Shown here piece after piece: positions 1 through 28,429 of a stretch of 64,000 bases of DNA (position 1 is the stretch's first letter; each line of letters starts with the position of its first letter). Location of the stretch: NCBI RefSeq assembly GCF_054482595.1, contig NZ_CM137008.1; one strand, written 5' to 3'. The position numbers and the translations under genes are program-made. Under the pieces are notes generated by a model. It ran no database searches, had not been told where the DNA came from, and worked only from the letters and a program-made list of their open reading frames with translations.

Positions 1-136
1 TTGATAGCCAGTCATCCCATTGCGACACTCGGCTAAAAAACAGGTCATTTGTCGCCTCGGTTCTGGCTTCATCGCTCGCCATCCAGTCTGCGTCAAACTT
101 ACACAGAATGGAATTGAGTCTGTTTTCGTCGGCCAT
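1..136 (-). CDS. Portal protein, N-terminal fragment (P22 gp1-like); gene runs off the window
   Basis: Minus-strand ATG at 134-136 directly after terL stop; translation [43 protein letters not shown] resembles recalled P22 portal N-terminus. Confidence 0.5.
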
Positions 137-7022: not shown

Positions 7023-7191
7023 CGTCTTCTTCCTCGTACATTGAGCTATTCGGATCGCTCATCAGTTCTGCGCAGCAGTGCTTACACACGTGAACTTCCA
7101 GCACATGCAGCTTCTGACCGCAGTTAGCGCACGTTAAAGCTCGCTCGACGCTTTCTTTCTGGTATTGAAGGGATTGGGATGGGCTAAGCAT
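7015..7191 (-). CDS. ninF: NinF
   Basis: 58 aa ORF below the track threshold, found by translation: [58 protein letters not shown]; matches recalled lambda NinF. Confidence 0.65.
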   Translation of the reverse strand: MLSPSQSLQYQKESVERALTCANCGQKLHVLEVHVCKHCCAELMSDPNSSMYEEEDDE

Positions 7192-7568: not shown

Positions 7569-7701
7569 AGGTGAGCCGTGTAGTTGAATGTTTTTACGTC
7601 AGATTCTTTTGGGATTGGCTTGGGTTTATTTCTGGAGCGTTTCGTTGGAAGGTATTTGCAGTTTTCACAGATTATGTCGGTGATGCTTCGTCGCTGTCGT
7701 C

Positions 7702-9508: not shown

Positions 9509-9525
9509 GACTTCCCTCTCCCCCA

Positions 9526-9555
9526 AATAAAAAGGCCTGCGATTACCAGCAGGCC
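9526..9555 (-). terminator. Rho-independent terminator (tR2-like, between helicase gene and nin region)
   Basis: GGCCTGC-N8-GCAGGCC hairpin followed by T-run on the minus strand. Confidence 0.4.
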
Positions 9556-9584
9556 TGTTATTAGCTCAGTGATGTAGATGGTCA

Positions 9585-11036: not shown

Positions 11037-11901
11037 GAACTTTCAGGTAGGTATTGTCGTTAAGCAGGAAATCAAATCCCTTTTTGTGCCAGACGGTTCC
11101 GCGTTGATGGTTTGGACGCTCTTCGAACATCCATCGGCAATTTTCGCCTACGTAGCTCAAATAATTTCTCCAGTCCTGCATCGTGAACCCATGCCCGTCA
11201 AGCTGGCGGGTTATCACTCCGGCTTTGCGCCAGAACGTTCGGATCTGGTTTTTACGCTTGTCATTCAGTGCGCGGATTCTTGGCGCTTCAGGAAGGATTT
11301 CGTGGTAAGCATCGACAACATCCTGACAGCTGACGGAAGGTTTTTTCTTGTCAGACTTTTTGTCTGCTGTGGCACTCTCTAATACGTCAGTATTAGAGAT
11401 ATTATTTATATTATTGTTTATGGACAACCGTTGGACAACCGTTGGACAATCTCCGCTGAGAGCCGCACCATTACTGGTGTTTGCGTTGGACAACTGTTGG
11501 ACAACCGTTGGACAATTTTTTGCCTGAAAATCGTCATATTTAACGATTGTAAACAGGCTAAATTTCTTCCCCATCGAGCAAATATTAAGCATACCTTTCG
11601 ACTCAAAAGTCCGTAATAAGCTCCGAACTTTGTTGTCGGGGATGAATGTTTCTCTGACCAGCGACGGGCGTCCAGTTATCATCTGACCGCGATCAACAGT
11701 TATCGGACCGATATCCGTATTGACGACAGTAGATTCGTGATTAGCCTTGAGGATTAAGTGAAGCCAAAGATGTACTGCCTGAGAGTCCTTATAGAGCCTG
11801 CTGTCCATAAACTGGCGGTGTATAGAGACATACCCCATACTGGATGCCTCCTGATGTTGTACAGGGTTATGCCTGTAATCAGCTAACTTAACGACGCCCA
11901 T
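11011..11901 (-). CDS. Replication initiator, O-like
   Basis: 296 aa ORF upstream of helicase; contains iteron array inside its coding sequence as in lambda O. Confidence 0.7.
   Translation of the reverse strand: MGVVKLADYRHNPVQHQEASSMGYVSIHRQFMDSRLYKDSQAVHLWLHLILKANHESTVVNTDIGPITVDRGQMITGRPSLVRETFIPDNKVRSLLRTFESKGMLNICSMGKKFSLFTIVKYDDFQAKNCPTVVQQLSNANTSNGAALSGDCPTVVQRLSINNNINNISNTDVLESATADKKSDKKKPSVSCQDVVDAYHEILPEAPRIRALNDKRKNQIRTFWRKAGVITRQLDGHGFTMQDWRNYLSYVGENCRWMFEERPNHQRGTVWHKKGFDFLLNDNTYLKVREGEHDDR
11422..11516. repeat. Origin iterons: two triplets of ~11-bp TTGGACAACCG repeats, followed by an AT-rich stretch
   Basis: Direct repeats read at 11422-11450 and 11488-11516; encode repeated CPTVVQ(Q/R)LS in O. 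Confidence 0.6.
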
Positions 11902-12083
11902 GTTTCACTCCTGCTTTGGCTAGTCTGTAAACACCAACAAGGCGCTCTGCGAACGCCCTGTTATTTGCTGCGGCTACCACTAATCCCTCAGGTGAATCAG
12001 GGTGTCGAATCTCTTCTTTTTCCTGGTATTTCTTACGACGTTTTGTCATAATTACTCCTGTGGATTGATCCAGTCTTTCTACA

Positions 12084-12362
12084 TCAGGCCTCGAAGAATT
12101 CGCCGTTCTTCGGGGCTTTTTCTTTTGTCAGCATTCTGGCTACTTTCTTAGCCAGTTCCGCCAACTCCTCGTCTTCAACACCCCATTCAAGAACAGCCAG
12201 AAGCATTCCCATTTTTGGGATGAAGCTGTCTTTCCATCGCGAAATTTGCGATTCATTAATCCCTAATGCATCAGCAACCTTTCGCTGACCACGTACAGCA
12301 ATTCGATTCAGGATGTTGCTTGTAATTGCATTCGCTTTCTTGCGAGTACTTGTAAGTTGCAT
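12084..12362 (-). CDS. cII: CII-like transcriptional activator
   Basis: From Met MQLTSTRKK; strong similarity to recalled lambda CII (GTEKTAEAVGVDKSQISRWKRDWIPKFSMLLAVLEWGV). Confidence 0.7.
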   Translation of the reverse strand: MQLTSTRKKANAITSNILNRIAVRGQRKVADALGINESQISRWKDSFIPKMGMLLAVLEWGVEDEELAELAKKVARMLTKEKAPKNGEFFEA

Positions 12363-12430
12363 ATGTAAGTATTTCCTTAACAAATAAGAAGTTATGCGCA
12401 TCAACTTATGCGCGTTGTATTCCCGCATTT

Positions 12431-12474
12431 CGGCGGGAATGAGGACCATGACTGTTAAAGAGCGGTGTTACTTA
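12431..12474 (-). promoter_or_regulatory. nutR-like site (boxA CGCTCTTTAAC plus boxB hairpin)
   Basis: Minus-strand boxA-like sequence and TCCCGC-N6-GCGGGA hairpin just downstream of cro; same hairpin recurs upstream of N. Confidence 0.45.
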
Positions 12475-12717
12475 TGCTGCCTGATTCGGTTTTGGAAACA
12501 GGTGTGGCAAATCGGGGCGAATTTCGTAAGCCTTGATCTGCCCTCCAGTGGCGTTAACGATGGCGGTAACTTTCTCTGGAGAGACCAACCCGCCTTTCAG
12601 CCATTTGTGTACTGCTGGCTGCGTTACACCACACTTGTCGGCAAGACGCTTTTGGCTACCGACAATTTTCAAGGCTCGTTGAATTACTAAATTCATGAGC
12701 ATACCTCTTGTGGTCAT
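12472..12717 (-). CDS. cro: Cro-like repressor (HTH)
   Basis: 81 aa HTH ORF divergent from cI across the operator region; true start probably an internal Met. Confidence 0.6.
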   Translation of the reverse strand: MTTRGMLMNLVIQRALKIVGSQKRLADKCGVTQPAVHKWLKGGLVSPEKVTAIVNATGGQIKAYEIRPDLPHLFPKPNQAA

Positions 12718-12732: not shown

Positions 12733-12795
12733 ATAACTCAAGTTATAAAAATTAGCAATAACCTTTGTTATTTTACTTTGGATAACCGTAGTTAT
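12733..12795. promoter_or_regulatory. OR operator region: three ATAAC-N4-GTTAT palindromes
   Basis: Sites at 12733-12746, 12758-12771, 12782-12795, centres ~24-25 bp apart, between cro and cI. Confidence 0.5.
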
Positions 12796-12807
12796 AGATT
12801 TGTGGGT

Positions 12808-13515
12808 ATGAAAACATTCGCAGAAAGACTAAATGCAGCCATGAGCTCAGCAGGGGTATCACAATCACAGCTTGCTGACATGGTTGGAATATCTCAGCCA
12901 GCCATACAGAAGATGTCGTCCGGTAAAACAAACGGATCTCGCAAGATGGTTGAATTAGCCAATGCTTTAAAAGTGCGTCCTGAATGGCTTAGTTCTGGTA
13001 TTGGTGAAATGAGGGATGGTGCACATGAAGAACCATCCAATGTCCGTGAGTCATCTTTAAAAGCTGTGGTATGGGAAGACATTAAAAGAAACGATGACGA
13101 GTTTGTTGCGTTGCCTCTTCTTAACGTTTCGCTTTCAGCTGGAAGCGGTAGCTGCGAGCTAGAGGAATCATCGGAGTTCTCTTTGGTTTTCAGAAAGCAC
13201 TATCTGAAAAAGATGGGAGTATCTGAAAGATCAGCCAAGCTAGTTAGGGTTGTAGGGCAAAGCATGGAACCAACGCTTCACGATGGCGATGTTGTTGGTG
13301 TTAACACGCAAGATACCACAATCAGAGATGGTAAAACCTACGCTATTTGCCAGTCTGATTTGTTACGAGTAAAAACATTAATCGCCACCCCTACATCGGT
13401 GATAATCAGATCAATAAATCGCGAAGAGTACCCGGATGAAGTAATGGATAGAGATGAATTTCATAAAACCGTAAGGATTATTGGCAGAGTATTCTGGTCG
13501 TCTCATAGTTGGTAA
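12808..13515 (+). CDS. cI: CI-like repressor (HTH plus S24/LexA-like autocleavage domain)
   Basis: N-terminal HTH, C-terminal GQSMEPT...DGD motif; start set at first ATG of the TTG-initiated ORF. Confidence 0.8.
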   Translation: MKTFAERLNAAMSSAGVSQSQLADMVGISQPAIQKMSSGKTNGSRKMVELANALKVRPEWLSSGIGEMRDGAHEEPSNVRESSLKAVVWEDIKRNDDEFVALPLLNVSLSAGSGSCELEESSEFSLVFRKHYLKKMGVSERSAKLVRVVGQSMEPTLHDGDVVGVNTQDTTIRDGKTYAICQSDLLRVKTLIATPTSVIIRSINREEYPDEVMDRDEFHKTVRIIGRVFWSSHSW

Positions 13516-13757
13516 CCGATAATCAGAAGAAGACTTACGGAAGTGCGGAGGGATAATGGAATTTCTGATAGTTTTTGTTGTTGTTTTGGTCATCATTCTT
13601 TTTGTTTTGCTAAGCATTAGCAAAAAGCTATCTCAAATGATTGAACATAGCTCTAATCGCGCAAAATAGACTGGCCCCCTGAATCTCCAGACAACCAATA
13701 TCACTTATTTAAGTGATAGTCTTAATACTAGTTTTTAGACTAGTCATTGGAGAGCAG

Positions 13758-14123
13758 ATGATTGATGTCTTAGGACCGGAGAAACGCAGACGGCGTACTA
13801 CACAGGAAAAGATCGCTATTGTTCAGCAGAGTTTTGAACCGGGAATGACAGTCTCCCTTGTTGCCCGGCAACACGGTGTGGCAGCCAGCCAGTTATTTCT
13901 CTGGCGCAAGCAATACCAGGAGGGAAGTCTTACTGCTGTGGCCGCAGGAGAACAGGTCGTTCCTGCCTCTGAACTTGCTGCCGCCATGAAGCAGATTAAA
14001 GAACTCCAGCGCCTGCTCGGCAAAAAAACGATGGAAAATGAACTCCTTAAAGAAGCCGTTGAATACGGGCGTGCAAAAAAGTGGATAGCGCACGCGCCCT
14101 TATTGCCCGGGGATGGGGAGTAA
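13758..14123 (+). CDS. insC: IS2 transposase OrfA (InsC)
   Basis: 121 aa [26 protein letters not shown]..., matches IS2 InsC. Confidence 0.9.
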
Positions 14124-14986
14124 GCTTAGTCAGCCGTTGTCTCCGGGTGTCGCGTGCGCAGTTGCACGTCATTCTCAGACGAACCGATGACTGGAAAGAT
14201 GGTCGCCGCAGCCGTCACTCAGATGATACGGATGTGCTTCTCCGTATACACCATGTTATCGGAGAGCTGCCCACATATGGTTATCGTCGGGTATGGGCGC
14301 TGCTTCGCAGACAGGCCGAACTTGATGGTATGCCTGCGATCAATGCCAAACGTATTTACCGGATCATGCGCCAGAATGCGCTGTTGCTTGAGCGAAAACC
14401 CGCTGTACCGCCATCGAAACGGGCACATACCGGCAGAGTGGCTGTGAAAGAAAGTAATCAGCGATGGTGCTCTGACGGGTTCGAGTTCCGCTGTGATAAC
14501 GGAGAAAAACTGCGAGTCACGTTCGCGCTGGACTGCTGTGACCGTGAGGCACTGCACTGGGCGGTCACTACGGGCGGCTTCAACAGTGAAACAGTACAGG
14601 ACGTCATGCTGGGAGCGGTGGAACGCCGTTTCGGCAACGAGCTTCCGGCGTCTCCAGTAGAGTGGCTGACGGATAATGGTTCATGCTACCGGGCTAATGA
14701 AACACGGCAGTTTGCCCGGATGTTGGGGCTTGAACCGAAGAACACGGCGGTGCGGAGTCCGGAGAGTAACGGCATAGCAGAGAGCTTCGTGAAAACGATA
14801 AAGCGTGACTACATCAGTGTCATGCCCAAACCAGACGGGTTAACGGCAGCAAAGAACCTTGCAGAGGCATTCGAGCATTATAACGAATGGCATCCGCATA
14901 GTGCACTGGGTTATCGCTCGCCACGGGAATATCTACGGCAGCAAGCCAGTAATGGGTTAAGTGATAACAGGTGTCTGGAAATATAG
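14081..14986 (+). CDS. insD: IS2 transposase OrfB (InsD)
   Basis: 301 aa ORF overlapping insC as in IS2. Confidence 0.9.
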
Positions 14987-15193
14987 GGGCAAATCCACAA
15001 AAGAAGAAGAGCATCTAATTGATATAAAAGAGATTCTATCTGATATAAAAATCACATTAGATGAAATAAAATACACAACAGATCTAATTGAACAGTATAA
15101 AATACCAACCCCAAACGAGAGAAAAGCAATAGATCAATATCGTATTGACTTAGAAATCGACGAAATGCTAAGCAAAAGAAAAGACTAAAAACA

Positions 15194-15220
15194 CCCGGCC
15201 TCAGCGCCGGGTTTTCTTTT
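15194..15220 (+). terminator. Rho-independent terminator after the rex-locus gene
   Basis: CCCGGC-loop-GCCGGG hairpin followed by TTTTCTTTT. Confidence 0.5.
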
Positions 15221-15385
15221 CCTGCCGTTCACCACCCAATCACCCATCATCATCATAGACAAGCATCAAGCCAAAGGTAACACCTTCACCCCGCACGCAA
15301 GCCCTCAAACACCAATCAATCAGCAACATTTACAAAAATAAAATACATTTGTTATCCATCACTTATAACTTATTTACCACAAAAT

Positions 15386-15424
15386 ATAAGTTAGGTTATT
15401 GACCACACCTATAACCTAAGTTAT
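15386..15424. promoter_or_regulatory. OL operator region: two ATAAC/G-N4-GTTAT sites flanking a putative pL -35 TTGACC
   Basis: Sites at 15386-15399 and 15411-15424, same half-sites as OR. Confidence 0.45.
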
Positions 15425-15472
15425 CTTTAAGCCATCAGCAGGACGCTGGTAGCCAAACGGAACAGATTGGCA

Positions 15473-15515
15473 GGCTCTTTAACATTGATGGGATTGTCCC
15501 GCCGAAATGCGGGAA
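15473..15515 (+). promoter_or_regulatory. nutL-like site (boxA GCTCTTTAACA plus boxB hairpin)
   Basis: boxA-like sequence at 15473-15484 and TCCCGC-N6-GCGGGA hairpin at 15497-15515 upstream of N. Confidence 0.45.
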
Positions 15516-15708
15516 CCAAAGAGTAGTTGGCTTTGGGATTGGATGAATGAGCAGGCTGATGCTCGACCAATGTATAAACAGCGCTCATGGCAAGCAGTAA
15601 CCAATCTGCGCCTCAAGACAGCGTCACTGGTAGTGCGGGCGCTCTAACCAGTAAGCCGGAATTCAGCACCGGCCATCCAATCACCAAAGTCAATCATCGG
15701 AGGTCAAC

Positions 15709-16008
15709 ATGACAGTAGTCATTACATATCTGGCTGACGATAACGCCAGAAATCGCCGCAGAGCACGCAGACAGACTCAACGTGAACAGGCAATGCAAGA
15801 GCAGCGACTGGCGCGAAAAATTGCGCTAAAGCTCTCTGGTTGCGTCAGAGCAGATAAAGCAGCATCACTCGGAAGCCTTCGCTGCAAGAAGGCAGAAGAA
15901 GTCGAGCGTAAACAGAACCGTATTTACTACCGCAAGCCACGCAGTGAAATGGGTGTGACTTGTGTTGGTCGCCAGAAAATGAAATTAGGCAGCAAACCAC
16001 TTATTTGA
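15709..16008 (+). CDS. N: Antiterminator N-like
   Basis: 99 aa; arginine-rich N-terminus NARNRRRARRQ; C-terminus matches recalled lambda N (R.YY.KP....G.TC.GRQK.K..S.PLI). Confidence 0.7.
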   Translation: MTVVITYLADDNARNRRRARRQTQREQAMQEQRLARKIALKLSGCVRADKAASLGSLRCKKAEEVERKQNRIYYRKPRSEMGVTCVGRQKMKLGSKPLI

Positions 16009-16016
16009 GGTGAGAT

Positions 16017-16439
16017 GTGGAAGAACAAGCAAACAAGATTCTCGTAGAACTACTGCAAAAAGCCAGCAATGGAATAGACGCGGCTGTTTCATTTAGCCAG
16101 GCACAGATTCCTGATGTTGTTCATCAGTTGCTAATATGGAGTTTTGTCCATAGCGCACTTTTCCAAGTGACTGGGTTGTTGCTTTTAATTGCAGCAATGA
16201 AACTTCCTAGTTTTGCAAGAACGGCAAGAAATAATGGCGAGAGATGGACGTCTTTCGATGGATGTCCAAATGATGGATATTTTATATCTTCGTTTTATTA
16301 CGATATATGCACTGTATTTGCTCCTGTATTTGGCCCAATTATTGGCGTTTTAATTATTGCCTTCAATTTCGAATGGTTGAAGATTTGGCTTGCACCTAAG
16401 TTATTCCTAATTGAATATGCAGCGTCATTGGTTAAGTAA
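16017..16439 (+). CDS. Predicted multi-pass membrane protein in the early-left operon (SieB position)
   Basis: 140 aa, GTG start after SD GAGGTGAG; several hydrophobic segments; family not recognised. Confidence 0.4.
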   Translation: MEEQANKILVELLQKASNGIDAAVSFSQAQIPDVVHQLLIWSFVHSALFQVTGLLLLIAAMKLPSFARTARNNGERWTSFDGCPNDGYFISSFYYDICTVFAPVFGPIIGVLIIAFNFEWLKIWLAPKLFLIEYAASLVK

Positions 16440-16490
16440 TTTCAGGCCGAATATTCGGCCTTTATTTTTAGCATAAACAACAGAGGTGAA

Positions 16491-16625
16491 TATGAACGCA
16501 GTTGAATTTACAAAATGGATGGCAGAGCAAGATATCACAGGAGCCGACGAAAAGGCTGTGTACTACATGGCTATGCTATGGATTCACAAAGCAAAAGAGG
16601 CTGCAAATGCTCTTGGAGGTGAGTG
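16491..16625 (+). CDS. Small hypothetical phage protein
   Basis: 44-codon ORF found by translation (MNAVEFTKWMAEQDITGADEKAVYYMAMLWIHKAKEAANALGGE). Confidence 0.25.
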
Positions 16626-16826
16626 ATGTGCGAGTTTTATGAAGCAGATATCAAACGCCCAGAAATGGCAAGTGATGCGACATTACGTGATTACTTCGCA
16701 GCAAAGGCTATGCAAGCAATGATTAGCAATCCATCGATTATCGATAATGATTCTGATGGAGATGTTAATTATGCAGCAAGCGCTGCATATAAGTTTGCAG
16801 ACGCAATGCTCAAAGCTCGCGAATAA
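16623..16826 (+). CDS. Hypothetical phage protein
   Basis: 67 aa ORF, acidic, no recognised family. Confidence 0.3.
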   Translation: MMCEFYEADIKRPEMASDATLRDYFAAKAMQAMISNPSIIDNDSDGDVNYAASAAYKFADAMLKARE

Positions 16827-16961
16827 GCACTGTGTATTCATTCCAACGAGTGAATACACGGAGCAATGTCGCTCGTAACTAAACAGGAGCCGACTTGTTC
16901 TGATTGTTGGAAATCTTCTTTGCCCTCCAGTGTGAGGGCAATTTTTTTTGATGGAGGATAT

Positions 16962-17930
16962 ATGAGTGAAGTAACAGATTTAGTTGTTATTGAAAAAGCA
17001 AATGCAATGACTGTATTTCAGTCTGCCGACCAGATTGAAGAAATTCTCCAAAAGGTTGAACGTGAAGTTATGTCATTTGTGCCTGATATCACAACGGCAA
17101 AGGGCAGAAAGGAGATCGCTTCTCTGGCGTATAAAGTTGCGCAGACGAAAACATATCTCGATGGTCTTGGCAAAGACCTTGTTGCTGAACTGAAGGAAAT
17201 TCCAAAGCTAATTGATGCCAACCGCAAGACAGTGCGCGATCGCCTTGATGAACTGAAAGCCAAGGCGCGCCAGCCTCTTACTGATTATGAGGAAGAACAG
17301 GCGCGGATTAAAGCCGAAGAAGAAGCTAAGGCAGCAGCTGAAGCTCTCGCAAAGCAAATTGAGTCTGACCATGAAATAGCGATTTTGATGGATCGCGAAT
17401 TTGACCGCCAAAGAGAAGAGGCAAGACTCAAAGCGGAGCAGGAAAAGCGAGAGCATGAAGAACGATTAAAAAGAGAAGCTGAAGAGAAAGCCAGAGCTGA
17501 AGCCGAAGCAAAGGCAAAAGCCGAAATTGAAGCAGCAGCAAGACGAGAAGCAGAGGCTAAGGCCGCAGCGGAACGTGCAGAGCGTGAACGCATTGAAGCC
17601 GAGCAACGAGCACAGCGCGAAGCAAAAGAGGCAGCAGAACGAGCTGAAAGAGAAAAGCATGCGGCAATTGAAGCAGAACGCCGTAAAGCACAGGAGGAGG
17701 CAGAACGAATCCGGCGCGAGGCTGAAGCAAAAGAGCAAGCCAGAATAGCAGAAGAAAAAAGAATCAAGGACGAAGAAGAGCGTAGAGCAAAGGATAAAGC
17801 TCACCGGAAAGAAGTAAATAACAAAATACTTGCTGACCTTATCAAGGTTGGCGCATCAGAAGATGTTGCTAAAAATATCATAACAGCCATCGTAAAAGGC
17901 GAAGTATTCGCAACAAAAATAACCTACTAA
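16962..17930 (+). CDS. Coiled-coil protein with long Ala/Glu/Lys/Arg-rich region
   Basis: Start set at Met after SD GGAGGA; central ~150 aa EAEAKAKAEIEAAARREAEAK-type repeats. Confidence 0.4.
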   Translation: MSEVTDLVVIEKANAMTVFQSADQIEEILQKVEREVMSFVPDITTAKGRKEIASLAYKVAQTKTYLDGLGKDLVAELKEIPKLIDANRKTVRDRLDELKAKARQPLTDYEEEQARIKAEEEAKAAAEALAKQIESDHEIAILMDREFDRQREEARLKAEQEKREHEERLKREAEEKARAEAEAKAKAEIEAAARREAEAKAAAERAERERIEAEQRAQREAKEAAERAEREKHAAIEAERRKAQEEAERIRREAEAKEQARIAEEKRIKDEEERRAKDKAHRKEVNNKILADLIKVGASEDVAKNIITAIVKGEVFATKITY

Positions 17931-17954
17931 TAAAACCAACATAAGGAACCACCC

Positions 17955-18086
17955 ATGATTTACGCAATCGCGGGAGGCGCTCGCATGGGTGCCTTCCAAT
18001 TAAATGAATCTTTACTTGAACGAATCACCCGTAAATTACGTGACGGATGGAAAAGAGTTGAGGTCTTATTATGCGCAATGAAATAG
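17955..18086 (+). CDS. cIII: CIII-like protease inhibitor
   Basis: 43 aa; ESLLERITRKLRDGWKR matches recalled lambda CIII core. Confidence 0.7.
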   Translation: MIYAIAGGARMGAFQLNESLLERITRKLRDGWKRVEVLLCAMK

Positions 18087-18223
18087 CCATTAATCACCAG
18101 ATGCTTCGTGCGGCACAAAACAAAGCAGTAATAGCCAGATTTATTGGTGATTCCAAAATGTGGCTTGAAGCAAATAAAGCGATGAAATCAGCTATCAACC
18201 TTCCGTGGTATCGCAGGAAATGA
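18071..18223 (+). CDS. kil: Kil-like host division inhibitor
   Basis: 50 aa; QNKAVIARFIGDSKMWLEANKAMKS resembles recalled lambda Kil; position after cIII. Confidence 0.55.
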   Translation: MRNEIAINHQMLRAAQNKAVIARFIGDSKMWLEANKAMKSAINLPWYRRK

Positions 18224-18378
18224 GTTTTACAGATAACTGGTCAGACGAAGAATTCATTCGTCAGATGAAAGATTTAATCGGTAACGAAGGAGATATTCAT
18301 GTCACTTGCAACCACAGTGAAGGAGAGCAAGTTACAGAGACGCATGTACACGCAGAAAGCTCTCTGGTATCGCCATAA
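18220..18378 (+). CDS. Small hypothetical phage protein
   Basis: 52-codon ORF by translation; no family recognised. Confidence 0.2.
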   Translation: MSFTDNWSDEEFIRQMKDLIGNEGDIHVTCNHSEGEQVTETHVHAESSLVSP

Positions 18379-18477
18379 TGGCGACCGCGAAGGAATGCGG
18401 GTATGCCTTAATTTGTCCCGAGTCGAAGTATTAAATCAGCGTTATTTCCTTGGGCCATGTCCATTCTGAGGTGAATT

Positions 18478-19185
18478 ATGGATTTGAATAAATTCGATGA
18501 GCCATTCAGCCCTGAAGATATCGAATGGCGAATACAGCAAAGCGGTAAAACACGCGATGGCAAAGTGTGGGCTATGGTGCTGGCTTATGTCACGAACCGG
18601 GCAATCATGAAACGCCTGGACGATGTTTGCGGCAAAGCAGGATGGCGCAATGAATACCGCGATATTCCCAACAACGGCGGCGTTGAATGCGGCATATCAA
18701 TAAAGATTGATTCCGAATGGGTAACCAAATGGGATGCTGCTGAAAACACGCAGGTAGAAGCCGTCAAAGGTGGTCGTTCCGGTGCAATGAAGCGCGCTGC
18801 CGTTCAGTGGGGAATCGGTAGGTATCTGTATAACCTTGAGGAAGGTTTCGCACAAACATCTCTCGATAAAAAGCAGGGGTGGCACAGGGCAAAACTCAAG
18901 GATGGAACAGGATTTTACTGGCTCCCTCCATCGCTGCCGGGATGGGCAATCCCAGCATCAGATAACAAACCATCACCAGAAAATACCAACCAGAAATCTC
19001 CATCGGTTAACTGCGAACAAATCCTGAAAGACTTCAGCGATTATGCGTCAACAGAAACTGACAAGAAAAAACTCATCGAGCGTTATCAGCGTGACTGGCA
19101 ATTAATGGCTGGCAACGAGGAGGCGCAGGCTAAATGCGTTCAGGTAATGAACATCAGAGTTAACGAGCTAAAACAGGCGGCATAA
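18478..19185 (+). CDS. Putative single-strand annealing protein (Rad52-like)
   Basis: 235 aa immediately upstream of ssb in the position occupied by bet in lambda; family call tentative. Confidence 0.45.
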   Translation: MDLNKFDEPFSPEDIEWRIQQSGKTRDGKVWAMVLAYVTNRAIMKRLDDVCGKAGWRNEYRDIPNNGGVECGISIKIDSEWVTKWDAAENTQVEAVKGGRSGAMKRAAVQWGIGRYLYNLEEGFAQTSLDKKQGWHRAKLKDGTGFYWLPPSLPGWAIPASDNKPSPENTNQKSPSVNCEQILKDFSDYASTETDKKKLIERYQRDWQLMAGNEEAQAKCVQVMNIRVNELKQAA

Positions 19186-19659
19186 ATGGCAAGTAGAGGC
19201 GTAAATAAGGTGATCATTATTGGTCGCCTTGGGCATGATCCAGAAATCAGATATTCACCATCAGGAACGGCATTTGCAAACCTTACAGTTGCTACGTCAG
19301 AACAATGGCGTGATAAGAAAACTGGAGAGCAAAAGGAGCAGACGGAGTGGCACCGCGTGGTAATGAGCGGGAAACTGGCAGAAATTGCCAGCGAATATCT
19401 GCGAAAAGGCTCTGAGGTTTATCTTGAAGGAAAATTGCGGACAAGAAAATGGCAGGATCAAAGCGGACAGGATAGGTTCACTACCGAAGTCATCGTGGGC
19501 GTTGGTGGAACCATGCAAATGCTTGGTGGCAAGCAAGGAGGCAATGAACAGTCTTCACCTCAGCGAAATAACGGTCAGCAACAAAGACAGCAATCTCAGC
19601 AGCAGGGGAATCACAGCGAACCACCTATGAACTTCGACGATTCGGATATTCCGTTCTAG
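19186..19659 (+). CDS. ssb: Single-stranded DNA-binding protein
   Basis: 157 aa; OB-fold region nearly identical to E. coli SSB; Gln/Gly-rich tail ending DIPF. Confidence 0.9.
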
Positions 19660-19668
19660 GAGCTGAAT

Positions 19669-20148
19669 ATGAAAATCTGCTCAAGATGCCATCAACAGAA
19701 GGAAGAAAGGGACTTTCAAATCAGAAGAGCATCCAGAGATGGATTAACTGCCGCTTGCCGGGCTTGCCTGGCTGAATATGACAAAGAGCGCGCGGGATTG
19801 CCACATCGAGTATCAGCAAGGAGAAAATATCAATCATCGGAACGCGGAAGAGAACGGTGTAACGCAGCCAAAAAGCGGTTCATTCAGAGCAACCCATGGA
19901 AAAGAAAAGCCCACATCATCGTGGGTAATTTTTTGCGCGACGGTAAGCTAATCCGACCACCACAATGTGAGTGCTGCGGATCAGAATGTAAACCACAGTC
20001 GCACCACTGCGACTACAGCAAACCAACCGATGTGATGTGGCTCTGCAAGTCATGTCATGTCGAGTGGCACAAACATAACAAACCTATCTACCCAGACGAG
20101 GAACCAGTAACTCTCCCCTTCCCTCGTCACGCTATTCACGCAATTTAA
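19669..20148 (+). CDS. Zn-ribbon/HNH-type nuclease-like protein
   Basis: CSRCH and CRAC N-terminal motifs; C-terminal SHHCDYSKP...WLCKSCHVEWH resembles the HNH His-Me finger. Confidence 0.45.
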   Translation: MKICSRCHQQKEERDFQIRRASRDGLTAACRACLAEYDKERAGLPHRVSARRKYQSSERGRERCNAAKKRFIQSNPWKRKAHIIVGNFLRDGKLIRPPQCECCGSECKPQSHHCDYSKPTDVMWLCKSCHVEWHKHNKPIYPDEEPVTLPFPRHAIHAI

Positions 20149-20156
20149 GGACTTAC

Positions 20157-20705
20157 ATGAATCACTTGATGGTTGACCTTGAAACAATGGGCAACGGGCC
20201 ATACGCGCCAGTTATTTCTATTGGGGCGGTATTCTTTGATCCGAATACCGGAGAAACAGGAGAAGAGTTCTCGGTAAATATCTCGCTTGAATCATCAATG
20301 CGATATCGAGCGCGTCCTGACGCTTCAACGATTTTATGGTGGCTGGAACAGAGTGAAGAAGCCAGAAAATCGCTAACCAGCAACACTCAGGAGCTTTCAA
20401 CGGCTCTTTCATGGTTATCTGAATTCATCATAAAGAACGCTAACCACAAATTCGTTCAGGTTTGGGGGAATGGAGCATCATTTGACTGCGTTATTCTCCG
20501 AAACAGTTATTCGCTGACAGGGCAGCCAGTTCCGTGGCAGTGGTGGAATGACCGCGACGTAAGAACAATCGTCGAACTTGGGAAGGTAATAGGATTCGAC
20601 CCTAAGCGAGATATGCCATTCAAAGGAACTCGCCACAACGCTCTTGATGATGCCATTCACCAAGCCAAATACGTTTCAGCGATCTGGAAAAAGTTAGCTA
20701 AATAA
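20157..20705 (+). CDS. DEDDh-type 3'-5' exonuclease
   Basis: MVDLETMG (Exo I) and HNALDDA (Exo III) motifs. Confidence 0.65.
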   Translation: MNHLMVDLETMGNGPYAPVISIGAVFFDPNTGETGEEFSVNISLESSMRYRARPDASTILWWLEQSEEARKSLTSNTQELSTALSWLSEFIIKNANHKFVQVWGNGASFDCVILRNSYSLTGQPVPWQWWNDRDVRTIVELGKVIGFDPKRDMPFKGTRHNALDDAIHQAKYVSAIWKKLAK

Positions 20706-20721
20706 TCAACAGGAGAAAACC

Positions 20722-21018
20722 ATGCCAGCGCCTCTGTATGGTGCGGATGACCCGCGCCGCTGTTCCGGCAATTCCGTATCGGAGGTGCTGGATAAATTCA
20801 GAAAAAACTACGATCGGATAATGTCGCTACCTCAGGAAACGAAAGAGGAAAAGGAATTTCGCCATTGTATATGGCTTGCAGAGAAAGAAGAACGCGAGCG
20901 AATTTACCAGACATCAATCCGACCATTCCGCAAAGCCACATATACCCACTTCCCTGAATATATCGACCCGCGCCTGCGTAATTACCGCTCACGCTATGGC
21001 GCTATCAGTAATGACTGA
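20722..21018 (+). CDS. Hypothetical phage protein
   Basis: 98 aa ORF, no recognised family. Confidence 0.3.
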
Positions 21019-21171
21019 GGAATTTACCATGAGAGGACTTGCATACAATCCCGGCATTCTTCCGGCAGAAATGATTATTCGCCAACGCGTAAAGCCAATG
21101 CCATCGAGAGAGGGATTACTTAAGCGAAACTCGTTTCCATCAGTGAATCAAAACAAATATCTGAATGCGAT

Positions 21172-21576
21172 GTGGCGGAGTGGGAAGAAATGAAACAAAT
21201 GTCACTAATTGAGATGGATGGTTTTCTGAAAGGTAAATGCATCCCACGAGATTTAAAGGTTAACGAAACAAACGCTGAATATCTGGTGCGTAAATTTGCT
21301 GAAGCGGAGGCCAAGTGCGCGGCGCTGGCAGCGGATAATGCGGCGCTTAAACAGTCGGAGAAGGAATTTAATAACTTCTGTCGTCAGGAGTACTACGGTT
21401 GGGAGGACAACTTCACGGAAACCCCAGCCACCGATGCTTTCCTGGCTGAAGTACGGGCGCAGGGTGTGGAGATGGCTATGGAGCATATGCAGTCGAGCGG
21501 TTCGTTAACATTTGGAGATTGCTACATATCACTTAACGAGTTCGCCGCAGAGCTTCGCAAAGGAGGTAACCAGTGA
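21172..21576 (+). CDS. Hypothetical phage protein (start uncertain)
   Basis: 134 aa ORF; internal Mets at codons 7 and 10 are alternative starts. Confidence 0.3.
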
Positions 21577-21872
21577 GTGTATATCTCATTGATAAACGCC
21601 GACGTGGGCAACAAATACCACCTGTAGGAATTCCGAATCACACATGGTTTTGCGTACTTGATATCGATGGCATGGATAAGTTTGTTGACACTCGTCATTA
21701 CTGCGATACCGCAACAGCTACTCCGGCGAAAGCAAAGAAAATGGCTGCTCTGATAGAAAACTGGACTCCACCTGATGGGTGGTGCAATGGGAATGATCGA
21801 GATTGGCATGAAAAAATGAAGGGCTATATCTGCGATTTCTTACGTAAATGCAACGGCTTCAGGGTGATGTGA
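21573..21872 (+). CDS. Hypothetical phage protein
   Basis: 99 aa ORF overlapping neighbours by 4 bp, typical operon packing. Confidence 0.3.
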   Translation: MSVYLIDKRRRGQQIPPVGIPNHTWFCVLDIDGMDKFVDTRHYCDTATATPAKAKKMAALIENWTPPDGWCNGNDRDWHEKMKGYICDFLRKCNGFRVM

Positions 21873-21873
21873 C

Positions 21874-22554
21874 ATGAACAAGATTGACTATCAGGCACTG
21901 CGTGAGGCAGCAGAAAAAGCAACGTGTGGTGCGTGGTCGCTCGAATATGGAGAGGAGAGATTTGATGCTGGTGATGCGCTAATTCATCGTGAAGTTGTTG
22001 GATATCTTCCCATTTGCAGAATTGAAGGAGCGCATCCTGAAAGCGGTTTCGATGAAGATTTCCAAATGGAACAGCAGGCCAATGCTGAATTCATCGCCGC
22101 AGCCAATCCGGCTACCGTCTTGGCGCTGCTTGATGAACTGGAAGCCGCAGAGAAGCGTATCGCTGAATTGGAGTCACTGACTGTACCACAGTTACCGCAG
22201 CAAGCGGTGCCGGATGAAATGCCGGAGCCAGATACCGCGAGAATGTTCTTTACCGATGCAGTTGTGGCAATAGCTAAGGTTCAAGGCTGGAACGCCTGCC
22301 GCGCTGCCATGCTTCATAGTGCCGAACCTGTAAGCCAGGCTTACAAGTTGAACGCGCTGGATGGCAACTCTCCGGTAACTCCGGATGGTTGGGTTATGGT
22401 GCCGAAGGAGTTAACGCCGGAAATGATGAGAGCCGTTCAGATTAGAAGTGAGCTTGGAGGGTATGCCACTTCCAATCTATCTGGTGCATACAATATGTTT
22501 TCTGAGTTCTGGAATGTTGCTGTCTCAGCTGCGCCTAAGGTGGATGATTTATGA
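21874..22554 (+). CDS. Ead/Ea22-like protein
   Basis: 226 aa; N-terminal ALREAAEKAT.GAW...AAANPATVLALLDELEAAE resembles the Ead/Ea22 family. Confidence 0.45.
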   Translation: MNKIDYQALREAAEKATCGAWSLEYGEERFDAGDALIHREVVGYLPICRIEGAHPESGFDEDFQMEQQANAEFIAAANPATVLALLDELEAAEKRIAELESLTVPQLPQQAVPDEMPEPDTARMFFTDAVVAIAKVQGWNACRAAMLHSAEPVSQAYKLNALDGNSPVTPDGWVMVPKELTPEMMRAVQIRSELGGYATSNLSGAYNMFSEFWNVAVSAAPKVDDL

Positions 22555-22853
22555 ATCTCTATCGCTGCCCATTCTGTGGTTCCACTGTGCTTAACATCGG
22601 ATACTCATTCAGTATCAGAGGGAAAATGCGCTATGTGTCATGCAAATGTGGTGCCCAAGGACCAGAAAAACGAACTAGATCTGAAGCGATTTCTTCATGG
22701 AATAGTCGAATGAAAGTATGGGTTTATGATCCAGAAACCATATTAAACGCTGAAGAGCGCAGGAGAACGGAAGTCTATATTCATAACCTTAATGAAGATG
22801 GATTTACACCAGTGCTTGTAAAGGCTACTCCGCAGGAGGTTAACCATGGCTAA
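22551..22853 (+). CDS. Lar-like restriction alleviation family protein
   Basis: N-terminal YRCPFCGS zinc-ribbon typical of the Lar family; 100 aa. Confidence 0.45.
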   Translation: MNLYRCPFCGSTVLNIGYSFSIRGKMRYVSCKCGAQGPEKRTRSEAISSWNSRMKVWVYDPETILNAEERRRTEVYIHNLNEDGFTPVLVKATPQEVNHG

Positions 22854-22940
22854 CCTGCAACTTGACGTCAAAGGTGAATAACAATCCTCGCATTCGCGGG
22901 GATTTCTTTTATCTGAACTCGCTACGGCGAGTTTTATTTT

Positions 22941-23252
22941 ATGGAGATGATTATGACCTGTTCAACATTCAACCCTCTAACGTTACAGAAATACCAGCCA
23001 GACCCTGAAGATTTATGCTCACTGTGTGGCGGAAATCATGGTAAAGCCGCCATGATCGAATGTAAGGACAAAATCCACATTTGCCTTAATTGCGTTGATG
23101 TCCTCGTTGATATCAAAAATGAGAGAGAAGATAAAAAGCGTAGCGAGGCTGTTAGCGCCTTAGATTCATGGATGCGAGATGGGTATAGTGCCGCGCAAAT
23201 TTATGACTTAGCCATTTCAAAAGGCGAAATACCAGGAGTACGCATCGAATAA
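22941..23252 (+). CDS. Hypothetical Cys-rich (zinc-finger-like) protein
   Basis: 103 aa with CSLCGG and CLNC motifs. Confidence 0.3.
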   Translation: MEMIMTCSTFNPLTLQKYQPDPEDLCSLCGGNHGKAAMIECKDKIHICLNCVDVLVDIKNEREDKKRSEAVSALDSWMRDGYSAAQIYDLAISKGEIPGVRIE

Positions 23253-23292
23253 GACATAACCGATATTCGAATTGAAGAACTGAAAGAACACC

Positions 23293-23318
23293 AAGCCGCC
23301 TGATGGCGGTTTTTTCTT
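23293..23318 (+). terminator. Rho-independent terminator upstream of xis
   Basis: GCCGCC-TGAT-GGCGGT hairpin followed by TTTTTT. Confidence 0.4.
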
Positions 23319-23342
23319 GCGTGTAATTGCGGAGACTTTGCG

Positions 23343-23561
23343 ATGTACTTGACACTTCAGGAGTGGAACGCACGCCAGCGACGCCCAAGAAGCCTTGAAA
23401 CAGTTCGTCGATGGGTACGCGAGTGCAGGATATTCCCTCCTCCGGTTAAGGATGGAAGAGAGTATCTGTTCCACGAATCAGCGGTAAAGGTTGACTTAAA
23501 TCGACCAGTAACAGGTAGCCTTTTGAAGAGGATCAGAAATGGGAAGAAGGCGAAGTCATGA
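23343..23561 (+). CDS. xis: Excisionase (lambda Xis)
   Basis: 72 aa MYLTLQEWNARQRRPRSLETVRRWVRE..., matches recalled lambda Xis. Confidence 0.9.
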   Translation: MYLTLQEWNARQRRPRSLETVRRWVRECRIFPPPVKDGREYLFHESAVKVDLNRPVTGSLLKRIRNGKKAKS

Positions 23562-24609
23562 GCGCCGGGATTTACCCCCTAACCTTTATATAAGAAACAA
23601 TGGATATTACTGCTACAGGGACCCAAGGACGGGTAAAGAGTTTGGATTAGGCAGAGACAGGCGAATCGCAATCACTGAAGCCATACAGGCCAACATTGAG
23701 TTATTTTCAGGACACAAACACAAGCCTCTGACAGCGAGAATCAACAGTGATAATTCCGTTACGTTACATTCATGGCTTGATCGCTACGAAAAAATCCTGG
23801 CCAGCAGAGGAATCAAGCAGAAGACACTCATAAATTACATGAGCAAAATTAAAGCAATACGGGGGGGGCTGCCTGATGCTCCACTTGAAGACATCACCAC
23901 AAAAGAAATTGCGGCAATGCTCAATGGATACATAGACGAGGGCAAGGCGGCGTCAGCCAAGTTAATCAGATCAACACTGAGCGATGCATTCCGAGAGGCA
24001 ATAGCTGAAGGCCATATAACAACAAACCCTGTCGCTGCCACTCGCGCAGCAAAATCAGAGGTAAGGAGATCAAGACTTACGGCTGACGAATACCTGAAAA
24101 TTTATCAAGCAGCAGAATCATCACCATGTTGGCTCAGACTTGCAATGGAACTGGCTGTTGTTACCGGGCAACGAGTTGGTGATTTATGCGAAATGAAGTG
24201 GTCTGATATCGTAGATGGATATCTTTATGTCGAGCAAAGCAAAACAGGCGTAAAAATTGCCATCCCAACAACATTGCATGTTGATGCTCTCGGGATATCA
24301 ATGAAGGAAACACTCGATAAATGCAAAGAGATTCTTGGCGGAGAAACCATAATTGCATCTACTCGTCGTGAACCGCTTTCATCCGGCACAGTATCAAGGT
24401 ATTTTATGCGCGCACGAAAAGCATCAGGTCTTTCCTTCGAAGGGGATCCGCCTACCTTTCACGAGTTGCGCAGTTTGTCTGCAAGACTCTATGAGAAGCA
24501 GATAAGCGATAAGTTTGCTCAACATCTTCTCGGGCATAAGTCGGACACCATGGCATCACAGTATCGTGATGACAGAGGCAGGGAGTGGGACAAAATTGAA
24601 ATCAAATAA
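23539..24609 (+). CDS. int: Tyrosine integrase (lambda Int)
   Basis: 356 aa; matches recalled lambda Int; overlaps xis as in lambda. Confidence 0.95.
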   Translation: MGRRRSHERRDLPPNLYIRNNGYYCYRDPRTGKEFGLGRDRRIAITEAIQANIELFSGHKHKPLTARINSDNSVTLHSWLDRYEKILASRGIKQKTLINYMSKIKAIRGGLPDAPLEDITTKEIAAMLNGYIDEGKAASAKLIRSTLSDAFREAIAEGHITTNPVAATRAAKSEVRRSRLTADEYLKIYQAAESSPCWLRLAMELAVVTGQRVGDLCEMKWSDIVDGYLYVEQSKTGVKIAIPTTLHVDALGISMKETLDKCKEILGGETIIASTRREPLSSGTVSRYFMRARKASGLSFEGDPPTFHELRSLSARLYEKQISDKFAQHLLGHKSDTMASQYRDDRGREWDKIEIK

Positions 24610-24663
24610 TGATTTTATTTTGACTGATAGTGACCTGTTCGTTGCAACAAATTGATAAGCAAT

Positions 24664-24697
24664 GCTTTTTTATAATGCCAACTTAGTATAAAAAAGC
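24664..24697. promoter_or_regulatory. sib/tI-like inverted repeat overlapping the att core
   Basis: GCTTTTTTATA ... TATAAAAAAGC inverted repeat immediately downstream of int. Confidence 0.45.
24683..24697. other. attL: attL core of prophage (lambda common core, reverse complement TTAGTATAAAAAAGC) at the prophage-host junction
   Basis: 15-bp core flanked on one side by recalled lambda P' arm sequence and on the other by host sequence (AGGCTTCA = reverse complement of the attB left arm TGAAGCCT). Confidence 0.85.
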
Positions 24698-24743
24698 AGG
24701 CTTCAACGGATTCATTTTTCTATTTCATAGCCCGGAGCAACCT

Positions 24744-26027
24744 GTGAACACATTTTCAGTTTCCCGTCTGGCGCTGGCATTGGCTTTTGGCGTGACGCTG
24801 ACCGCCTGTAGCTCAACACCACCCGATCAACGTCCTTCTGATCAAACTGCGCCTGGTACCTCTTCTCGCCCGATTCTGTCGGCAAAAGAAGCGCAGAATT
24901 TCGATGCTCAACACTATTTTGCATCCCTGACACCAGGTGCTGCAGCGTGGAATCCGTCCCCGATAACCCTGCCTGCGCAACCTGACTTTGTTGTCGGCCC
25001 GGCGGGTACTCAAGGTGTAACGCATACCACGATTCAGGCGGCGGTAGATGCGGCAATTATCAAGCGCACCAACAAGCGCCAGTATATTGCCGTGATGCCT
25101 GGTGAGTATCAGGGAACGGTGTATGTCCCTGCTGCTCCAGGTGGAATTACTCTGTACGGTACAGGTGAAAAACCGATTGATGTGAAGATTGGGCTTTCCC
25201 TTGATGGGGGCATGAGCCCTGCCGACTGGCGTCACGACGTCAACCCGCGCGGCAAATATATGCCAGGTAAACCAGCGTGGTATATGTACGATAGCTGCCA
25301 GAGCAAACGCAGCGACAGTATCGGTGTTCTGTGTTCTGCGGTCTTCTGGTCACAAAACAATGGCCTGCAACTGCAAAACCTGACCATCGAAAACACGCTG
25401 GGTGATAGCGTAGATGCGGGTAACCATCCGGCGGTGGCACTGCGTACTGACGGTGACCAGGTACAGATTAACAACGTTAACATTCTCGGTCGTCAGAACA
25501 CCTTCTTTGTCACCAACAGCGGTGTGCAGAACCGTCTGGAAACGAATCGTCAGCCGCGTACGCTGGTGACCAACAGCTACATTGAAGGGGATGTGGATAT
25601 CGTTTCTGGTCGCGGCGCAGTGGTGTTCGATAACACCGAATTCCGCGTGGTGAACTCACGTACTCAGCAAGAAGCGTATGTGTTTGCACCGGCTACGCTG
25701 TCCAACATTTACTACGGTTTCCTCGCCGTAAACAGCCGTTTCAATGCTTCCGGTGATGGCGTGGCACAACTGGGCCGCTCGCTGGATGTTGATGCCAATA
25801 CCAACGGTCAGGTGGTGATCCGTGATAGCGCCATCAACGAAGGTTTTAATACGGCTAAACCGTGGGGCGATGCGGTGATCTCTAATCGTCCGTTTGCGGG
25901 TAACACCGGCAGCGTTGACGATAGCGACGAAATACAGCGCAATCTGAATGACACTAACTACAACCGCATGTGGGAATACAATAACCGCGGCGTGGGTAGC
26001 AAAGTGGTTGCAGAGGCGAAGAAGTAA
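24744..26027 (+). CDS. ybhC: Pectinesterase-family outer-membrane lipoprotein (putative acyl-CoA thioesterase) YbhC
   Basis: 427 aa with lipoprotein signal (LTACSS); recognised as E. coli YbhC. Confidence 0.85.
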   Translation: MNTFSVSRLALALAFGVTLTACSSTPPDQRPSDQTAPGTSSRPILSAKEAQNFDAQHYFASLTPGAAAWNPSPITLPAQPDFVVGPAGTQGVTHTTIQAAVDAAIIKRTNKRQYIAVMPGEYQGTVYVPAAPGGITLYGTGEKPIDVKIGLSLDGGMSPADWRHDVNPRGKYMPGKPAWYMYDSCQSKRSDSIGVLCSAVFWSQNNGLQLQNLTIENTLGDSVDAGNHPAVALRTDGDQVQINNVNILGRQNTFFVTNSGVQNRLETNRQPRTLVTNSYIEGDVDIVSGRGAVVFDNTEFRVVNSRTQQEAYVFAPATLSNIYYGFLAVNSRFNASGDGVAQLGRSLDVDANTNGQVVIRDSAINEGFNTAKPWGDAVISNRPFAGNTGSVDDSDEIQRNLNDTNYNRMWEYNNRGVGSKVVAEAKK

Positions 26028-26039
26028 GAGCTATTAACT

Positions 26040-26165
<126 letters not shown>

Positions 26166-26167
26166 TT

Positions 26168-28429
26168 TTACATCTGACGGTTTTTATTGAAGTTAATCAA
26201 ACTACCCGCCTTGATAATCTCGCGCTCTTCAGCAGTCAGACTTTCCATATAGAGCGTAATTTCCGTTACCGGCGCATCTTCATGGATCACATAACCTTTA
26301 AACGTCGTACCCGGATTATCCAGCGCCGCTTTAATGCCAGGGATGTAAATGTAATCCCCCACTTCAAAGGTTGGCACTTCCGCCATCTGCAGAGGTAACA
26401 TCCCCCAGTTGATGACGTTAGAACGGTAGCGTTTAGTCGCGTACTCCTCGGCAATATTCGCCAGACCGCCAATCACACGCTGACAACTCGCCGCCTGTTC
26501 ACGCGCAGAACCATCGCCTGGTTTCACCGCATAGACCATGCTGCCAATTTCAGTTTGCAGCGGATCAATATGCTCCTGACCAGCAATCTGCTTAATGCGC
26601 GCAAACACCTCTGTCAGCTCGCTGACATTCCCCGCCAGACGCTGATTTTCCAGCTCAGCAGTCGCTTTACTTCTGCCAACATAACCTGGATCGCGGCGTG
26701 ACAGGGTAAACTCCGCCAGACCAATCGGATTTGAACGATAAGAAGAGGTTTCACCGGAAGGAATCAGTTCGTCGGTGGTGGTCACTTCGTCGAGGATCTT
26801 CGAGCACACTTTGAGGACGATATTGTCAGTCAGCGCCCCCAATTCCGGCCAGTCTTTAATGTTCGGTCCGTAAATCAGCGGTTGCTGAGTTGCCCCTTTC
26901 ACAATGCCCTGATAAACACGGTTTTTATACGGCGTTACATCGAAGGCGTACTCCGGCACGTTGTCCCAGCAATCAAGTTCGCTGGCAGAGGTTAAATAGC
27001 CACCGTTTGCCGCAGTCGCAGCGATAGAACGAGCGTCCATCAACGCCACCGCTGACATCTGCCCATTAGCTGGCTTAGAGCCTTCGCGGTTCGGGAAGTT
27101 ACGCGTGGTGTGGCGAATACTCAAACCGTTGTTGATTGGCGTATCGCCCGCGCCAAAGCATGGGCCACAGAACGCGGTTCTGATAATTGCGCCTGCGCCA
27201 ATCAAATCTGCTACCACACCTTTTTTGGCTAAATCCATAAACACCGGCTGTGATGACGGGTAAACCGCCAGCGAGAAGGTGTCATTGCCACAGGATTGAC
27301 CGCGCAGTGCATTCGCCGCCGCGATGACGTTTTCGTAGTTACCGCCAGAACAGCCCGCGATAATCCCCTGCTGCACTTTCAGGCGACCATTTTCCACTTT
27401 ATCCAGCAGCGAGAGTTTGGCCTTACCGTGCGCCACGCGTTCGGACTCAATTTCAATCTCACGCAGAATGTCGGTCAGGTTCTGGTTCAGTGTGTCGATT
27501 TCATACACGTTGCTCGGGTGGAACGGCAGCGCAATCATTGGTTTGATGGCACTTAAATCAACGCTGATGCAGCCATCGTAGTACGCCATCGGTTGAGGGT
27601 TAAGCTGGCAGTAATCCTGGCCGCGACCGTGCAGCGTCAGCCAGTTATGGACTTCTTCATCGGTTTGCCAGACAGAACTTAAACAGGTCGTTTCAGTGGT
27701 CATAACGTCAACGCTGTTACGGAAATCGGTAGAGAGCGCAGCAACACCGGGACCTACGAATTCCATCACTTTGTTTTTGACGTAGCCGTTTTTGAACACG
27801 GCACCGATGATAGCCAGCGCCACATCCTGCGGCCCCACATACGGCGCTGGTTTTCCGGTCAGATGCACCGCAACAACTCCCGGATAGTCGATATCCCAGG
27901 TGTCATTAAGCAGCTGTTTTACCAACTCACCGCCGCCCTCACCGACTGCCATTGTCCCTAATGCACCGTAACGGGTGTGGCTGTCTGACCCGAGGATCAT
28001 TTTGCCCCCGCCTGCCATCATCTCACGCATATATTGATGGATGACCGCAATATGCGGAGGCACAAAAATACCGCCATAACGCTGAGCTGCCGATAAACCA
28101 AAAACATGGTCATCACCGTTAATGGTGCCGCCGACGGCGCAGAGTGAGTTATGGCAGTTGGTCAGCACATACGGCAGCGGGAAACGTTCCATTCCGGACG
28201 CTTTAGCGGTCTGTACAATACCAACAAAGGTAATATCGTGAGAGGCTAATGAATCAAACTTAATTTTAAGTTTATCCATATTTCCGGACGTATTATGAGA
28301 ATAGAGAATAGACCAGGCAATAGTGCCTTTTTTGGCTTCTTCTTTTTTAATTTCGCCGGTGAAATGTTCTTCGGCAATTATTTCGTTATTACTGGCGAGA
28401 AACACGCCTTTTTCAGATAACTTGATCAT
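26168..28429 (-). CDS. ybhJ: Aconitase-family hydratase YbhJ
   Basis: Aconitase signature GSDSHT and Fe-S ligand cysteines; start set at Met MIKLSEK. Confidence 0.8.

Follow-up and report, generated by a model that had tools for sequence, protein, structure and literature searches.

A lambda-type site-specific recombination module forms one end of a prophage that otherwise resembles phages P22 and Sf6 and that occupies the classical lambda attachment site of an Escherichia coli chromosome. In the window, i.e., the whole 64,000-nucleotide stretch of DNA that was analyzed, positions 1-24697 are prophage and the sequence switches from phage to host at 24697. We assign a probability of roughly 0.92 to the reading that this junction is the attL of a P22-like (Lederbergvirus-type, headful-packaging) lambdoid prophage, which carries the xis/int/attP module of lambda.

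The junction is marked by a 15-bp common core, GCTTTTTTATACTAA (24683-24697, minus strand), for which one exact match is found in the entire 64-kb window. In a three-way alignment of the window, lambda attP and the spacer between ybhB and ybhC of E. coli strain XH990, the window is identical to lambda through the core and identical to the host from 24698, i.e., the switch point falls at the core, which is the crossover region of attL (BOP'). The host B arm that follows (24698-24743), which is the ybhC side of the ybhB-ybhC spacer, is identical to the empty attB of XH990. It leads into the host gene ybhC (24744-26027, plus strand, 427 aa; RefSeq annotation in strains that are 100% identical), the GTG of which, at 24744, is found 47 positions past the final base of the core. 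An initial annotation of this DNA, made from the letters alone, had placed the joint between core and host sequence 47 bp upstream of ybhC, and the alignment confirms this placement. Beyond ybhC the host genes are found in the order ybhC-ybhJIHD-pgl-ybhA-modCBA-acrZ-modEF-galETKM, continuing to tol-pal-cydAB, which is the classical gal side of attB-lambda. Because the sequence is that of lambda through the core and thereafter that of ybhC and the gal-side host region, the region is best interpreted as attL (BOP'), i.e., the int-proximal junction of a prophage integrated at the classical attachment site of lambda, adjacent to ybhC. The prophage extends past the left end of the window and the core is unique, so any second junction must be located outside of the window, on the ybhB/bio side; the claim that the window contains only one junction is thereby upheld.

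The host flank offers a direct comparison with an unoccupied site. In XH990, a urine isolate from China, ybhB and ybhC are adjacent, which means that attB-lambda is empty in this strain. The segment 24679-64000 of the window is 99.995% identical to XH990, with 2 mismatches over 39,322 bp, one of which is a phage-derived base just outside of the core, and the near-identical XH990 sequence departs from that of the window exactly at 24697. Together, these data constitute a clean occupied/empty comparison of attB-lambda, and the proposal that the classical lambda attachment site is occupied in this chromosome holds: the ybhB-ybhC spacer continues beyond the core, while the same site is empty in XH990. 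Because the flank is this similar to that of the empty-site strain, gain of the prophage, or its precise loss, presumably occurred very recently compared with the divergence of the hosts.

Two additional features of the host flank were observed. The segment 50100-52150 holds a host tRNA Lys/Val cluster (7 tRNAs), RtT repeats and a CpoB/ybgF RNA thermometer, as expected for this region of E. coli. A low-GC stretch at about 60000-62500 (37-43% GC) separates cydA from the methylaspartate mutase genes glmS/glmL; in XH990 the same stretch contains two genes that are annotated as hypothetical, and it looks like an accessory island.

On the phage side of the core, the 88 bp that follow the int stop codon and end with the last base of the core (24610-24697) are identical to lambda at 88/88 positions, in line with the initial claim of a lambda match over the 80 bp that follow int. 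The P' arm of attL (24606-24682, minus strand), in which all bases are those of lambda, is assigned the sites P'3, P'2, P'1 and the IHF site H' using names from the lambda literature. The arm-type Int sites P'3, P'2 and P'1 are presumably found at about 24606-24636, with P'3 overlapping the int stop codon, and what we take to be the core of the H' site is found at about 24645-24657, with an A-tract at 24664-24674. In the lambda record J02459, an annotated Int-binding site spans the int stop codon.

The P' arm also contains an inverted repeat, in which TGCTTTTTTATA (24663-24674) pairs with TATAAAAAAGCA (24687-24698) over 12/12 nucleotides. This repeat had been described as sib-like. The repeat itself is present, but its identification as sib is rejected, because it consists of the core paired with the A-tract beside the H' IHF site. 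In lambda, sib is a downstream element that acts on int and is the basis of retroregulation, and in the lambda prophage it is separated from int and located at the far junction. Folding places the lambda sib/tI hairpin (CATTAGCGCAAGG...CTTGCGCTAATTTTTT) about 145-190 nucleotides beyond the core, in the P arm (a terminator scan of the lambda P arm missed tI owing to the criteria of the scan, while folding detected it), and this position is maintained in the attP of phage Huey and in the attR of the prophage of E. coli fECg99.1, which are both discussed below. The sib hairpin has no match in the window when up to 3 mismatches are allowed (<=3).

The genes adjacent to the P' arm are those of lambda as well. 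The excisionase gene xis (23343-23561, plus strand) encodes a 72-aa protein that is identical to lambda Xis at 71/72 residues (Pfam Exc, E=3.9e-41). It is found directly upstream of int (23539-24609, plus strand), with which it overlaps by 23 nucleotides and which encodes a lambda-type tyrosine integrase of 356 aa, identical to lambda Int at 352/356 residues and composed of the Pfam domains Arm-DNA-bind_1 and Phage_integrase. All six catalytic residues (R212, K235, H308, R311, H333 and Y342) are present. At the nucleotide level, megablast aligns 23252-24697 of the window with 29169-27724 of lambda at 98.8% identity. Taken as a module, xis, int and the P' arm are in essence DNA of lambda itself, and the similarity is far beyond chance. 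The initial annotation had named Int and Xis as lambda matches, with a failure of the int-proximal sequence to align to lambda as a possible refutation, and on both points the comparison turned out in its favor.

The integrase differs from lambda Int by H164P, A245T and I248V, which are also found in Huey and in the fECg99.1 prophage, and by R109G, which is unique to the window and is the sole difference from the integrases of these two relatives. Codon 109 (23863-23865) is found within a run of eight G (23861-23868), and R109G could be a real variant or a sequencing error in this homopolymer. An exact-protein look-up of this Int returned no record in the public collection.

The left border of the lambda module (23252-23342, plus strand) ends just before xis and is near-identical to lambda. 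A three-way alignment, here with Sf6 and lambda, showed that the first ~65 bp of this segment (23252-23316) are common to Sf6, lambda and the window. To the left of this block the window is equivalent to Sf6 (about 98% identity), while to the right it is equivalent to lambda and Sf6 diverges. Because the window is Sf6-like on one side and lambda-like on the other, the block is interpreted as the recombination joint between the lambda integration module and an Sf6-like left arm. Joining of modules through a short shared block is the ordinary form of lambdoid module exchange. A terminator scan identified a terminator-like hairpin (23293-23312) inside the block. In the lambda-identical stretch to its right, just upstream of xis, there is a TTGC-N6-TTGC motif (23317-23330), the position of which we take to be that of the lambda cII site at pI. 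Just before the border a 103-aa open reading frame (22941-23252) is Sf6-like; its exact protein is found elsewhere only in Sf6-type contexts, upstream of different integrases.

The remainder of the prophage up to this border (2103-23251) was described using open reading frame lists as well as Pfam and PHROG matches. The late and early-right genes are transcribed leftward (1-12717) and the early-left operon rightward (12778-24609). The leftward part includes the lysis genes (3227-4444), Q (4981-5469), the nin region, a gene for a DnaB-like helicase (9585-11036), O (11011-11901), a gene for an activator of the CII/C1 family (12084-12449) and cro (12472-12717). The rightward part starts with a gene for a CI-like repressor (12778-13515), followed by a copy of IS2 (13667-14997), an N-like gene (15709-16008) and an Sf6-like early-left operon (16.0-23.3 kb). 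All recognizable genes in the 24.7 kb are full-length open reading frames.

The origin of this DNA is mixed. Of the in-window part of the prophage, 17.8% aligns to lambda, which comprises the int module, S/R/Rz (the lysis genes are 92.8% lambda-like) and scraps of nin, and 23.5% aligns to P22, which comprises the packaging genes and scattered segments. The description of the prophage as a lambda/P22 mosaic is thus supported by the alignment of the in-window part, where a lambda int module is combined with P22 packaging genes. A larger fraction, 45%, aligns to Huey and includes replication genes at 99% identity. Taken overall, the strongest phage matches are to IME10, Sf6, mEp506 and Huey.

The IS2 element (IS3 family) is complete, 1331 bp in length, and flanked by a 5-bp target duplication, CAAAA (13662-13666 and 14998-15002). 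It interrupts a 98-aa accessory open reading frame (phrog_18389) downstream of the CI-like repressor gene, and removal of the element in silico restores this frame, which encodes a transmembrane helix and a coiled coil and occupies the slot of lambda rexAB. Disruption of the pL operon or of the repressor by IS2 was considered and rejected; the insertion is found between the repressor stop codon and the putative pL region. Among the other features of the prophage, a marginal match to the Rfam int-alpA sRNA (42.0 bits; gathering score 35.8) is found on the minus strand at 2807-2869, in the spacer that separates gene 3 from the lysis genes. In the early-left operon, a 354-aa open reading frame (16866-17930, plus strand; phrog_1376 and phrog_21365) has a long, highly charged center that is rich in E, A, K and R.

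At the other end of the window the genes are those of a headful-packaging phage of the P22 type, all on the minus strand. The small terminase gene, i.e., gene 3 of the P22 type (1614-2102), is complete (Pfam GP3_package, E=3.5e-33) and contains a 22-bp pac site (1814-1835) that is identical to the pac annotated in P22 (positions 4-25). Directly downstream, and overlapping with gene 3, is gene 2 (137-1636), the 499-aa product of which is a large terminase of the P22 type (Pfam Terminase_6N and Terminase_6C) that is identical to P22 gp2 at 460/497 residues (93%). What is probably the start of a portal gene of the P22 type follows (1-136, open reading frame 136..2) and runs off the window after the first 45 codons. 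The Pfam P22_portal match of this stub is weak (21.6 bits, below the cut-off of 26.1) because the stub is short. In 8/8 contigs that carry the identical large terminase, a 721-aa P22_portal gene is found next to it, followed by genes for scaffold, coat, gp4, gp10, needle and ejection proteins. In the present prophage, any genes for scaffold, coat, gp4/10/26, ejection proteins and tailspike would be located outside of the window. The initial annotation had placed P22-like portal and terminase genes at this end. This statement stands for the terminase, where genes 3 and 2 are complete, while the portal is represented only by the stub of 45 codons. An exact-protein look-up of the large terminase returned many contigs, none of which contained the same prophage.

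Comparison with known phages and prophages places this element among familiar relatives. It shares with lambda Xis (71/72), Int (352/356), the P' arm, the core, the host site and the placement of int on the gal side, adjacent to ybhC. The remainder differs from lambda, the window having pac/headful packaging genes of the P22 type, a DnaB-type helicase and a different immunity region; in addition, where lambda has exo/bet/gam, this prophage has a Rad52-type recombinase and SSB instead. With P22 it shares the identical pac, gp2 (93% of residues) and the gene order 3-2-1, and with Sf6 the early-left operon at 16.0-23.3 kb (about 98% identity), including the 103-aa open reading frame before the border. 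P22 and Sf6, however, use integrases and att sites of their own rather than those of lambda (the Sf6 integrase has an Arm-DNA-bind_3 domain and P22 attP is found at 21300).

Closer counterparts combine both parts. Huey (PQ850609), an isolated P22/Sf6-like podophage, is a mosaic of the same kind with lambda-type int/xis/attP and an integrase that differs at one residue; its attP has a P arm with sib beyond the core. In contrast to the window, its large terminase gene (1416 bp) does not align to the one found here, and its immunity region and nin content differ. In the closed genome of E. coli fECg99.1 (NZ_CP085637), the interval between ybhB and ybhC is occupied by a P22-like prophage that has the orientation seen here, with lambda-type int next to ybhC. 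This prophage has terminase, portal, coat and tailspike genes of the P22 type and is delimited by the core, which occurs twice in direct orientation at a distance of 42.1 kb; its attR, i.e., the ybhB end, has sib and a P arm similar to that of lambda. Its early regions resemble those of the window only in patches (blocks of 95-98% identity), and neither the immunity region nor the IS insertion is the same. The temperate P22-like phage phiHS3, from E. coli HS, is reported to integrate upstream of ybhC, to excise both spontaneously and upon addition of mitomycin C, and to perform lateral transduction (bioRxiv 10.64898/2026.05.19.726188); its likeness to the prophage in the window is based on the description in that paper rather than on sequence. 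Among 5426 complete E. coli genomes, 1890 (35%) contain the junction composed of the 3' end of int, P' and ybhC. The same prophage was found in none of the complete E. coli genomes, the best match covering 83% of 21000-27000 of the window at 97% identity.

Other explanations of the data must be weighed against this reading. A genuine lambda prophage, i.e., a Lambdavirus of the cos-packaging siphovirus type with a superficial likeness to P22, would account for the 98.8% identity of the int/xis/attP arm and for the lambda-like lysis genes (92.8%). However, lambda DNA accounts for only 17.8% of the in-window prophage, the place of Nu1/A is taken by gp3 with a P22 pac, by a gp2 that is 93% identical to that of P22 and by the start of a P22 portal gene, and it is IME10, Sf6 and Huey to which its replication, immunity and early-left regions correspond. 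The alignment share together with the P22 pac and gp2 refutes this explanation, and we assign almost no probability to it. An assembly chimera, in which a lambda-int prophage at attB-lambda has been mis-joined to a P22-like prophage located elsewhere, is highly improbable, albeit slightly less so. The switch from Sf6-like to lambda-like sequence does occur inside the ~65-bp block, which is near-identical in Sf6 and lambda and could have guided such a mis-joining, and neither the exact Int nor the exact prophage is found in the public collections. Yet, typical reads are longer than the shared block, the same combination is found in the closed genome of fECg99.1 as well as in the isolated phage Huey, and joints of this type are the normal form of lambdoid mosaicism.

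The remaining explanation concerns the state of the prophage rather than its identity. The element could be a defective remnant that has retained the int-proximal 24.7 kb, but where the virion genes and/or attR are deleted or rearranged such that neither excision nor formation of particles occurs. This scenario is in agreement with a window that ends in the portal gene, with insertion of IS2 in the prophage and with the frequency of the int/ybhC junction among complete E. coli genomes (35%), the listed examples of which have IS insertions and partial genes here. On the other hand, the recognizable genes in the 24.7 kb are all full-length, IS2 has hit only the 98-aa accessory open reading frame with a clean 5-bp duplication, and the att arm, the pac site and the catalytic residues of Int are intact. 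Furthermore, the 99.995% identity of the host backbone to the empty-site strain suggests a recent acquisition. On balance, a remnant is unlikely, and the P22-like prophage with the lambda module is probably complete and able to excise.

For a prophage of this type, the events at the junction can be outlined by analogy with lambda. Upon integration, Int and IHF would have carried out recombination between the attP (POP') and BOB' within the 7-bp core overlap. The products would be BOP' at the junction discussed here and, at the ybhB end, POB', located no less than about 17 kb left of position 1 of the window. After infection, an activator of the C1/CII type may act at TTGC-N6-TTGC upstream of xis, which would result in synthesis of Int without Xis. 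Upon induction, transcription from pL, antiterminated by the N-like protein, would cross the Sf6-like early-left operon and reach xis and int. The int message of the prophage would escape retroregulation because sib/tI is found past the core in the P arm and is therefore apart from int in the prophage. Excision would then be catalyzed by Int and Xis together with IHF and Fis. The assignments of pI and the cII site and the proposed escape from sib are transferred from lambda on the basis of sequence identity.

The packaging end of the window suggests an additional, more tentative scenario. The P22 pac directs packaging toward the 3' end of the small terminase gene, and with this direction packaging in situ would proceed leftward out of the window, to attR, ybhB and bio. 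It is conceivable, although on present evidence rather doubtful, that the prophage is intact, excises late as do P22 and phiHS3, and is packaged in situ from the pac at 1814-1835, past attR and on to ybhB and the bio operon.

The arrangement itself is common, its kind and site are already known, and it reflects ordinary lambdoid mosaicism, i.e., textbook module exchange in which a lambda integration cassette has been placed on a genome similar to those of Sf6 and P22. The result names the end of a prophage and its integration site and matters little beyond annotation, where it may be used in prophage typing and in the design of primers for attL/attB assays. In more general terms, the presence of a lambda-type int at attB-lambda says nothing on the type of virion that the prophage encodes. 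If packaging in situ were to occur as outlined above, the classical lambda attachment site would serve as the starting point from which the bio side of the chromosome is laterally transduced at high frequency, by a mechanism and in a direction unlike those of the rare gal/bio specialized transduction of lambda.
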